IMG/VR virus record: IMGVR_UViG_3300023275_000004
Location: 61,619-125,618 of that record
DNA from: a virus
Taxonomy: Duplodnaviria > Caudoviricetes
Reading direction: 5' to 3' (one strand)
Length of the DNA stretch: 64,000 bases
A model generated the notes under the pieces. It saw only the letters and a list, made by a program, of their open reading frames with translations. It did no database searches and had not been told where the DNA came from. Position 1 is the first letter of the stretch. Every line of letters starts with the position of its first letter. Positions 1,112-23,608 of this stretch are shown one piece after another. A program made the position numbers and the translations under genes.

Positions 1112-1113
1112 AT

Positions 1114-1197
1114 TGTAAGCAATCAGTAGGACTCGAACCTACAACCCCCGGCTTACCATGCCCGGCGCTCTGCCTTTGAGGCGTACAACTGCTTACA
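1114..1197 (-). ncRNA. tRNA-like RNA (Thr-GGT-like) with 12-bp extended acceptor helix
   Basis: T arm GTAGG-TTCGAGT-CCTAC; loop AT-GGT-AA on a bulged stem; TGTAAGCAGTTG/TGATTGCTTACA. Confidence 0.6.
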
Positions 1198-5714: not shown

Positions 5715-5792
5715 TGGACTATACGGGACTCGAACCCGTGAACCTCCTGCAAAATCAGGTGTTGTTCGCCGACCTTCTCAACTTTATTGCCC
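5715..5792 (-). ncRNA. tRNA-Ala-like RNA with shortened anticodon arm
   Basis: G3.U70 and A73, canonical T arm, 14-nt D loop, arm CCTG-ATTTTG-CAGG. Confidence 0.65.
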
Positions 5793-5793
5793 G

Positions 5794-5874
5794 TGGAGCT
5801 GTAGGGAGTCGAACCCTAGTCCTTCACCGTTCCGACGTGCGGCTTTCTAGTGAAGTCGAATACCGTCCAGCCCC
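5794..5874 (-). ncRNA. minimal tmRNA: tRNA-like domain only, no mRNA-like domain
   Basis: 5' GGGGCTG-GACGGTATTCGAC and 3' GGAC-TAGGGTTCGACTCCCTA-CAGCTCCA joined by a short CTTCAC/GTGAAG hairpin. Confidence 0.8.
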
Positions 5875-6085
5875 TCAGCTACAGCAGGAACCTTATTCCC
5901 TACGGTACTGTAGCACTACCGATCCACCCGATGCTAGCTGCCCTGCCCTTAGGCTCTGGTGGATAGGGCACTAAAACCTAGATAGTCTCGGAAGACATCT
6001 AGGAACTAGTGTGAATGAGAAAACAGGCCCTACCTGCATTTAATCCTAAGTTTTGGAGGCTTAGACTTCCTCGCTCACAAGAACT

Positions 6086-12873: not shown

Positions 12874-13182
12874 TTACTCAGTTTTCATGTCAGTTGCAAG
12901 AATTGCACCTTGATCCCAAGACTCTTCGGTAAGGCTGATAAAATAACCCGTAAACCATCTTGCCTCATCAAGAGCCGCTGATTGAAGCATCAGCATCCAT
13001 CTCTTAAGGTTCTTATCATAATGCCAAGAAAGTCTGTTTGGTAACGAATCAGGGTCCTGTGAGACCTTCTCAGCTGCCTGTATGAACAAGTTTAGCAACA
13101 TGTCTTTCAATGCGTCTAAAGACATGAAGCCTTCGGTTGAATTTACTCTGAATGATGCTCTATACATCTTCTCTTTATCCAT
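12874..13182 (-). CDS. hypothetical protein
   Basis: start moved to ATG 13182, outside tRNA-Cys. Confidence 0.65.
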   Translation of the reverse strand: MDKEKMYRASFRVNSTEGFMSLDALKDMLLNLFIQAAEKVSQDPDSLPNRLSWHYDKNLKRWMLMLQSAALDEARWFTGYFISLTEESWDQGAILATDMKTE

Positions 13183-13183
13183 G

Positions 13184-13265
13184 AGCACTTAGAGGGAATC
13201 GAACCCTTGACCGTAAGGACAGGTTTTGCAGACCTGCGGCAGCCCACCAGCTACCTGCTAAGCGC
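13184..13265 (-). tRNA. tRNA-Cys (GCA), 8/4 fold with Sec-like 6-bp D stem
   Basis: 8-bp acceptor GCGCTTAG/CTAAGTGC plus U73, 4-bp T stem, D stem GGTAGC/GCTGCC, loop CT-GCA-AA. Confidence 0.8.
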
Positions 13266-13302
13266 AAAAGGGATCACTATCTTGCAAGATAGGTTCCCTA
13301 AG

Positions 13303-13375
13303 AGCCCCCTGAAGGAATCGAACCCTCGTCTGCTGTTTACAAGACAGCGGCTCTGTGCCATTGAGCTAAGGGGGC
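13303..13375 (-). tRNA. tRNA-Thr (TGT)
   Basis: GCTGT-CTTGTAA-ACAGC. Confidence 0.94.
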
Positions 13376-13426
13376 AAATAGTGGGATTTCTTAAAAAGGG
13401 ACTACCAAGTACCCACTTCCCTACGG

Positions 13427-13497
13427 AGCGACTAGCCGGGATCGAACCGGCGACAAATGGTTGGAAACCACTTATGTTACCGCTACACCATAGTCGC
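13427..13497 (-). tRNA. tRNA-Gly (TCC)
   Basis: loop TT-TCC-AA, U73. Confidence 0.93.
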
Positions 13498-13507
13498 ATT
13501 ACTTACG

Positions 13508-13580
13508 AGCGGTGAACCGGACTTGAACCGGCGACCTAGACGTTGGCAACGTCTCGCTCTACCAACTGAGCTACCACCGC
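13508..13580 (-). tRNA. tRNA-Gly (GCC)
   Basis: AGACG-TTGCCAA-CGTCT. Confidence 0.93.
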
Positions 13581-23475: not shown

Positions 23476-23537
23476 CTAAAAAGTGAGTACGCCCAACATC
23501 TTGCATGGCCTAGGCTCGGGCACTGTACTCACTTTAG

Positions 23538-23608
23538 TACGACGACAGGACTCGAACCTGCAACACCGGCTTATATGCCAGGGCTTTACCCACTTAAGCT
23601 ACGCCGCT
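23538..23608 (-). ncRNA. tRNA-like RNA with 6-nt anticodon loop (ATATAA), possibly Ile-related
   Basis: normal D and T arms, CTGGC-ATATAA-GCCGG, 6-bp acceptor. Confidence 0.6.

Follow-up and report, generated by a model that had tools for sequence, protein, structure and literature searches.

A predicted 8/4 tRNA-Cys gene in a tailed phage, with relatives in other phages and in bacterial tRNA arrays

Here, we report an 82-nt tRNA-Cys(GCA) gene with an 8/4 cloverleaf (8-bp acceptor stem, 4-bp T stem) in the genome of a tailed phage. The gene lies at 13184..13265 on the minus strand of the window (the whole 64,000-nt stretch of DNA that was analysed), which is the right half (61619-125618) of a 125,618-bp (125.6-kb) IMG/VR virus record (IMGVR_UViG_3300023275_000004; CheckV completeness, 98%; G+C content, 46%). 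Comparison with homologues indicates that the gene is real and conserved and supports the 8/4 fold well. It is the only tRNA-Cys candidate of the whole 125.6-kb genome, beyond the window too, and it fills the sole gap in the phage tRNA set. It is conserved in a clade of related phages and has remoter relatives in actinobacterial tRNA arrays. We consider it likely, judging from its sequence, that the gene specifies a functional phage elongator tRNA-Cys(GCA) that would be charged by host CysRS.

Gene structure and genomic setting

In minus-strand order (13265..13184), the gene reads GCGCUUAG, CA, GGUAGC, UGGUGG, GCUGCC, GCAGGU, CUGCAAA, ACCUGU, CCUUACGGUCA, AGGG, UUCGAUU, CCCU, CUAAGUGC, U, with no encoded CCA. 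The 8-nt 5' acceptor strand (13258..13265) pairs with 13185-13192 to form an 8-bp stem that includes G3.U70 (positions 13263/13187) and in which position 8 is a paired G, not a free U8. A 2-nt linker (CA) leads to the D arm (13238..13255; 6-bp stem GGUAGC/GCUGCC including one U.G; loop UGGUGG, of 4 nt if U.G closes), which is followed by the anticodon arm (13219..13237), with a 6-bp stem (GCAGGU/ACCUGU) closed by G.U, a 7-nt loop CUGCAAA (U33, purine 37), and the anticodon GCA at 13229-13227. The variable region CCUUACGGUCA (11 nt, 13208..13218) forms at most a 2-bp hairpin, not kept in relatives. The T arm (13193..13207) has a 4-bp stem (AGGG/CCCU) without a bulge and the loop UUCGAUU, which fits UUCRANY, and the gene ends with the 3' acceptor strand CUAAGUGC and discriminator U73 (13184; together 13184..13192). 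All of these features are on the minus strand.

Both the MFE and the centroid fold are exactly this 8/4 cloverleaf (−32.7 kcal/mol; z = −2.24; 6/200 shuffles as good). The 12-bp acceptor/T branch is perfectly paired as 8+4, versus 7+4 with an A.C mismatch as the fifth T-stem pair in the 7/5 register. The four helices, the enlarged variable region, and the Cys elements GCA and U73 that the original prediction had read from the sequence are thus all present; G1:C72 completes the set of Cys identity elements.

At this locus the general Rfam tRNA model (RF00005) does not reach its 29-bit gathering score, and ARAGORN makes no call. The best local Rfam match is tRNA-Sec (RF01852), end to end, at 38.3 bits (E = 1.7e-6 in the 221-nt stretch searched; gathering score, 47), so that the comparison of Sec and tRNA covariance models proposed with the original prediction came out on the Sec side. 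The copies in two related phages (L137 and L243) are likewise uncalled by ARAGORN, and the Rfam tRNA gathering-level matches include none of the four copies in related phages (L104, L121, L137, and L243). Six other homologues reach the 47-bit tRNA-Sec gathering score (L172, 53.8 bits; L181, 53.3; L156, 53.1; L049, 52.0; L081, 50.2; L122, 47.5) and share with the window copy the non-Sec features of a 12-bp branch, U73, and GCA. Family members that pass this score, on phage contigs and in Micromonosporaceae arrays, may be mis-annotated as selenocysteine tRNAs by automatic pipelines. On L156, a gene at 5758-5839 called tRNA-Ser(UGA) by ARAGORN also scores as tRNA-Sec (47.3 bits).

Other genes of the phage include a family A DNA polymerase, a ribonucleotide reductase, a UvsX-like recombinase, and tail-fibre-like genes. 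The ARAGORN calls amount to 31 tRNA-type genes for the window and 37 for the genome, with the gene at 13184-13265 in neither list; the 37 cover all amino acids except Cys. Our own covariance model, R1, has one strong match in the genome, at the tRNA-Cys gene (95.3 bits), the next being ≤33.5 bits genome-wide and ≤29.3 bits among the other window tRNAs. The single strong R1 match and the lack of Cys among the 37 ARAGORN tRNAs make this gene the sole tRNA-Cys candidate of the phage, and so the earlier claim that it was the only Cys tRNA in the window holds for the whole genome. Together, the 37 canonical tRNAs and the 8/4 tRNA-Cys provide at least one tRNA per amino acid. Cys codons (UGU/UGC) number 243 in the 83 longest ORFs (0.9% of codons); the phage genome encodes no CysRS.

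The 8/4 register is required by the tRNA-Cys alone among the phage tRNAs (8+4 pairs, versus 7+4 in 7/5). For the others, 7/5 fits as well as or better than 8/4 by a simple pairing count, and nearly all carry U8. No phage tRNA gene encodes CCA (two CCA strings flagged by script lie downstream of the discriminator), and maturation therefore needs a CCA-adding enzyme. Across all 37 ARAGORN tRNAs of the genome, most carry C-G(-T) immediately 3' of the discriminator, perhaps as a common signal for 3' processing.

Directly upstream are tRNA-Thr(UGU), tRNA-Gly(UCC), and tRNA-Gly(GCC) (13302..13580, minus strand), canonical 7/5 tRNAs by ARAGORN, Rfam, and pairing count, and the wider neighbourhood holds tRNA genes, thioredoxin, and tail-fibre-like genes. 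Downstream lies an ORF of 102 aa without a family (12874..13182, minus strand), which is probably co-transcribed with the tRNA-Cys, since its ATG stands only 1 nt past the tRNA 3' end. The string CAUG follows the tRNA-Cys also in L137 and L243; no protein homologue of the ORF was found in the relatives' loci. The gene sits between a promoter-like site (14491-14462) and a terminator-like hairpin (12446-12425), both on its own strand and both consensus matches only, with no function implied.

The phage carries other irregular tRNA-like genes. At 1112-1196 (minus strand), a gene called tRNA-Thr(GGU) by ARAGORN scores only 32.6 bits with the Rfam tRNA model; its closing helix has 8 to 10 bp and its T stem 5 bp, and its anticodon arm is irregular. 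It may likewise be non-canonical, possibly 8/5-like. ARAGORN also reports a "tRNA-???" whose anticodon loop is shortened (two-base "anticodon"), at 23537-23608 (minus strand) between two Lys genes and again between Arg(UCU) and Lys(UUU) at L121:2981-3050 and L137:10448-10517; it is probably a conserved non-decoding tRNA-like gene. Finally, 5791-5882 (minus strand) is called tRNA-Pyl(CUA) by ARAGORN and matches Rfam tmRNA over only 84 nt (54.8 bits), and would be a tmRNA-like gene of very small size or else an amber-suppressor-like tRNA.

Covariation and relatives in phages and bacteria

Homologues were sought in IMG/VR with DNA patterns made of the anticodon loop, a gap, and the T loop, to which the D-loop motif UGGUG was added in some cases; these patterns are silent on the acceptor stem. 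Three of the loci found (L104, L121, and L137) are on contigs (G006, G007, and G008) whose DNA polymerases are 49 to 53% identical to that of the window. A fourth (L243, on contig G117), from a complete 135.6-kb relative with terminal repeats, was found by polymerase alignment (four sequences) and then the covariance model, with no tRNA pattern used; a single-protein polymerase query recovered no relatives. With the window copy, these four form a clade of five.

In this clade, which is free of any filter for 8/4 fit, although it has only five members and its alignment was fitted to the 8/4 model, standard pairs occupy 120/120 cells of the 8/4 structure, and 15 of the 24 pairs show compensatory (both-sided) changes. 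None of 500 shuffles reached any of the observed measures, and sliding the 3' partners by 1 to 3 columns lowered pairing to 32 to 53%. Four members have G-C, and one has A-U, as the eighth acceptor pair. The D stem is 6 bp rather than 4 bp long because of its two innermost pairs, and both covary (pair 5, GC in four and AU in one; pair 6, CG in two and AU, GC, and UA in one each). Three of the six anticodon-stem pairs have compensatory changes in the clade, and all six vary in the wider set. Invariant in the clade are G1:C72, C2:G71, GCA, U73, and the loop CUGCAAA.

The wider set holds 10 distinct sequences, in which 98.8% of cells pair, 20/24 pairs are compensatory, and the eighth acceptor pair takes five types (G-C, A-U, C-G, U.G, and U-A); U73 and GCA are invariant. 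The pair specific to 7/5 (49:65) forms in 0/5 clade members and in 1/9 of the wider set, where the contrast of 8/4 over 7/5 is partly built in, part of that set having been picked by a script that demanded a perfect 8/4 fit. Covariance-model alignments were used because MAFFT alone misaligned the 5' ends of the eight-sequence set; both alignments, being fitted to an 8/4 covariance model, lean to the modelled fold. Covariation of the D and anticodon stems played no part in any selection step. The compensatory changes among homologues place the fold beyond chance, and covariation in favour of a standard 7/5 fold with a 3- to 4-bp D stem, named in the original prediction as the observation that would count against it, was not seen; the data point the other way. 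The variable regions of the relatives are 7 to 11 nt long, differ in sequence without evident relation, and share no conserved helix, and this is therefore not a class II variable arm.

These comparisons bear on whether the gene is a decayed or non-decoding tRNA-like remnant (a pseudogene, a processing signal, or a mimic). Rejection by standard finders and the presence of other irregular tRNA-like genes on the same phage would fit such a reading, but we regard it as highly improbable in view of four perfect helices, compensatory changes across phages with about 50% identical polymerases, and the fact that the gene fills the only gap in the phage tRNA set. The anticodon loop, the T loop, and the discriminator are also given as invariant, with the qualification that the T loop of L243 is UCCGAUU instead of UUCGAUU.

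In four of four related phages (about 50% DNA polymerase identity), the tRNA-Cys adjoins the same tRNA neighbours. The order Arg-Asp-Gly-Gly-Thr-Cys is common to the window, L104, and L137, and L121 and L243 agree as far as their loci reach; where long enough, the loci of L104, L121, and L137 read Arg-Asp-Gly-Gly-Thr-Cys ... Ala-Val-Lys. L104 and L137 also have a tail-fibre-like gene in common. Three polymerase relatives (G112, G113, and G116; 89 to 100% complete) have no R1 match at E ≤ 1e-4, and the gene is therefore not universal in the wider group.

Unrelated phage contigs carry remoter 8/4 tRNA-Cys genes (L049, L129, L132, and L081), and in L122, L133, and L146 the register is ambiguous (8/4 or 7/5). 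An exact 27-mer of the tRNA had no match in IMG/VR, in a scan that may have left records of the window's own genome outside. When the tRNA, the GC-rich homologue L122, and a His-Tyr-Arg-Cys block from Actinoplanes were compared by BLAST with 50,697 GenBank phage records, nothing aligned over the Cys gene, and no cultured phage with this tRNA was identified among these records. The nearest cultured DNA polymerase is that of Microbacterium phage Magritte (37% identity), an actinobacteriophage that has no match to R1. Cluster C phage arrays have been reported to hold "selenocysteine" tRNAs (PMC5966550); Mycobacterium phage Cali (cluster C) was tried as a lead to the family and rejected, its annotated tRNA-Cys being an ordinary one.

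The phage contigs hold further unusual tRNA genes. A second phage group of 8/4 tRNA-Cys genes (L051:8584-8666, L149:11247-11329, and L152:12755-12838) stands out by an enlarged D region, with about 25 nt separating the acceptor and anticodon stems, and by an encoded CCA. Many phage tRNA-Cys(GCA) genes in IMG/VR (e.g., L027, L061, L091, L057, L074, L085, L016, L022, and L026) have a long class II-like variable arm on an apparently 7/5 body, as parsed by hand for L016 and L022 and judged from the listing for the others; this appears to be a different departure from the canonical tRNA-Cys. The L081 contig (IMGVR_UViG_3300009506_000002; 142 kb) packs 33 tRNA genes into 9 kb, including its 8/4 tRNA-Cys(GCA), a second "tRNA-Cys" with the anticodon ACA, and a suppressor-like tRNA with a UUA (ochre) anticodon.

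A scan of species-representative bacterial genomes, followed by R1, gave matches of 40 to 68 bits in two groups, Micromonosporaceae (Actinoplanes, Paractinoplanes, Plantactinospora, Rugosimonospora, and Actinocatenispora) and a Limnocylindrales MAG. At every locus inspected, 5 to 25 tRNA genes stand densely packed with the tRNA-Cys as the last of them, typically after Arg(CCG) and often in the order ...His-Tyr-Arg(CCG)-Cys. All five array-bearing genomes checked have a canonical tRNA-Cys elsewhere, and a strong R1 match is present in 4/101 sampled genomes of the family Micromonosporaceae; in bacteria the 8/4-type tRNA-Cys is therefore an extra copy of accessory character, carried in arrays. 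Each of the 16 array copies can pair as 8+4, and 11 of the 16 could form 7+5 too by pairing alone, so that on sequence the fold looks less clear-cut here than in the phage clade.

Relation to known 8/4 and selenocysteine tRNAs

Mukai et al. (2017, NAR 45:2776, PMC5389517) describe 8/4 and 9/3 allo-tRNAs, (8/4) tRNA-Ser and tRNA-His from phage clusters, and selC* tRNA-Cys. With all three groups the window gene has the 8/4 branch and the Sec-like core in common. Neither the main text of that paper nor a 2020 review (PMC7609411) mentions an 8/4 tRNA-Cys that lacks a variable arm from a phage or an actinobacterium. The window gene joins the published 8/4 class as a new member (Cys, class I, array-borne).

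Closest in setting are the phage (8/4) tRNA-Ser and tRNA-His (PMC5389517), which likewise sit in phage tRNA clusters, split a 12-bp branch as 8/4, carry sense anticodons, and are presumably ordinary elongators. The present gene differs in being Cys (GCA, U73), and the His and both Ser tRNAs of this phage are 7/5; moreover, the published cases come from alphaproteobacterial phages, whereas here the nearest cultured relative by polymerase is an actinobacteriophage. Allo-tRNAs (8/4 or 9/3; PMC5389517) are similar in the 8/4 branch, in a D stem that is long and bears a short loop, and in an anticodon stem of 6 bp, but they have a long variable arm and Ser identity, in contrast to a variable region of 7 to 11 nt without a helix and a fixed Cys identity in the present family. 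The suggestion that the gene is of allo type therefore fails in the strict sense.

[quoted passage not shown] The selC* tRNAs, however, have a long variable arm, an A51a bulge (in deltaproteobacteria), and often a UCA anticodon; they stand beside selB*/cysS* in anaerobes with full Sec machinery and are thought to use SelB. The window tRNA has no variable arm and a bulge-free 4-bp T stem, and it belongs to a plain tRNA cluster without Sec genes; neither SelA (PF03841) nor SelB (PF09107) has a match in the 98%-complete phage genome, with controls behaving as expected. The window tRNA accordingly does not fit the selC* class. Three loci tried as selC* genes, L202 (Smithella), L175 (Thermodesulfobacteriota), and L168 (Nitrospirae MAG), were rejected as chance pattern matches that are not tRNAs.

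The tRNA-Sec-like architecture named in the original prediction stands for the arms and the acceptor: bacterial tRNA-Sec (RF01852) has the same 8-bp acceptor, 6-bp D stem with a loop of about 4 nt, and 6-bp anticodon stem. It does not extend to the rest of the molecule, since bacterial tRNA-Sec has an 8/5 (13-bp) branch, where the window gene has 12 bp, as well as G73, UCA, a long variable arm, and dependence on SerRS, SelA, and SelB. A descent from tRNA-Sec, as put forward in the original prediction, is not supported here. The Sec-like D and anticodon arms, the best Rfam match being tRNA-Sec, and the six homologues that pass its 47-bit score could suggest a recoding tRNA of the selC*/tRNA-Sec type acting with SelB at special codons. 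We hold this to be extremely unlikely, because the branch length, U73 in place of G73, the anticodon GCA, and the missing long variable arm all speak against it, as do the lack of SelA and SelB in the phage and a position in a plain tRNA cluster and not beside selB*.

The canonical 7/5 tRNA-Cys (about 72 to 74 nt; it is exemplified by the 72-nt gene of Mycobacterium phage Cali and by the housekeeping copies in Micromonosporaceae genomes) shares with the window gene the loop CUGCAAA, U73, G1:C72, and the T loop UUCGAUU. The window gene departs from it in the 8/4 branch, a paired G8 versus a free U8, a 6-bp versus a 3- to 4-bp D stem, and an 11-nt versus a 4-nt variable region.

Proposed function and wider meaning

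As an elongator, the tRNA-Cys would be transcribed together with the neighbouring tRNA genes and downstream ORFs, excised by RNase P and 3' processing, and supplied with CCA by a CCA-adding enzyme. Charging by host CysRS would rely on U73, G34-C35-A36, and G1:C72. E. coli CysRS also uses a G15:G48 tertiary pair, which a Sec-like D arm cannot supply. The charged tRNA would be delivered by EF-Tu, not SelB, which is to be expected because its acceptor/T branch is of normal length (12 bp), and would read UGU and UGC. In the study of Mukai et al. (2017, PMC5389517), 8/4 tRNAs were shown to be functional in translation in E. coli, and an 8/4 tRNA-Cys was shown to be a substrate of CysRS.

Identity elements raise the question of mischarging. 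If AlaRS (via G3.U70) or SerRS loaded the tRNA, Cys codons would be read partly as Ala or Ser. G3.U70, the main AlaRS identity element, is found in the window copy and L137 and brings a small risk of mischarging with alanine. Yet L121 and L243 have A-U, and L104 has C-G, as the third pair, and the discriminator is U73, against the A73 of tRNA-Ala. Recognition by SerRS via a long variable arm is unlikely because the variable region varies between 7 and 11 nt with no conserved helix, which leaves SerRS without its determinant. GCA, U73, and G1:C72, the complete Cys set, are invariant in the clade, and the gene is the phage's sole Cys decoder. Although Mukai et al. report that in E. coli the amino acid inserted by 8/4 and 9/3 tRNAs (Ser, Ala, or Cys) depended on their identity elements (PMC5389517), we think dual identity very unlikely for this tRNA.

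Decoding of Cys codons by a host-charged elongator remains our preferred reading, and a further proposal concerns why its body is unusual. The original prediction had raised evasion of tRNA-Cys-cleaving toxins, and this is plausible because such toxins exist (Mycobacterium tuberculosis VapC4, PMC13096801). The odd body might decode and yet be a poor substrate for a host nuclease directed at tRNA-Cys (VapC4-like, Schlafen-like, or of some other tRNA-targeting defence) or for a host shut-off nuclease of the phage, so that Cys codons would still be read after loss of the host tRNA-Cys, a possibility that we rate as unlikely though worth setting out. In its favour, toxins that cleave only tRNA-Cys are described for Actinomycetota (VapC4, PMC13096801), and evasion of tRNA-targeting defences has been proposed or demonstrated for phage tRNAs (PMC10264068 and PMC11555353). 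The 8/4 form is limited to the Cys tRNA in the window's phage, and the extra copy in Micromonosporaceae arrays, next to a canonical tRNA-Cys in 5/5 genomes and present in only 4/101, has an accessory, mobile pattern. On the other side, no defence or toxin gene is linked to the 8/4 tRNA-Cys. Anticodon nucleases usually attack the anticodon loop, which here (CUGCAAA) is canonical and invariant; the published evasion cases (PMC10264068) depend on changes in that loop. Neutral inheritance of an odd but workable fold accounts for the same data.

Escape from nucleases would, on the slim chance that it applies, add a reason for the geometry to the elongator explanation and not replace it. A fuller version, which we put forward only tentatively and doubt to the same degree, is that of a nuclease-resistant spare tRNA-Cys travelling with tRNA arrays between phages and actinobacterial mobile elements, its Sec-like body selected for escape from tRNA-Cys-specific toxins or defence nucleases (VapC4-like), or from the phage's own host shut-off, without loss of acceptance by host CysRS and EF-Tu. 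The link to tRNA-directed toxins is testable; no new mechanism is demonstrated here.

For annotation, the finding means that the window's phage and at least two of its relatives would be reported without a tRNA-Cys by routine tools, because ARAGORN and the Rfam tRNA model miss the gene. Natural 8/4 scaffolds accepted by CysRS would be of interest for tRNA engineering. For the biology of these elements, the gene extends the published 8/4 class to a Cys elongator without a variable arm, carried by phages and accessory tRNA arrays, and it offers a testable case of whether odd tRNA bodies help mobile elements around tRNA-directed toxins.
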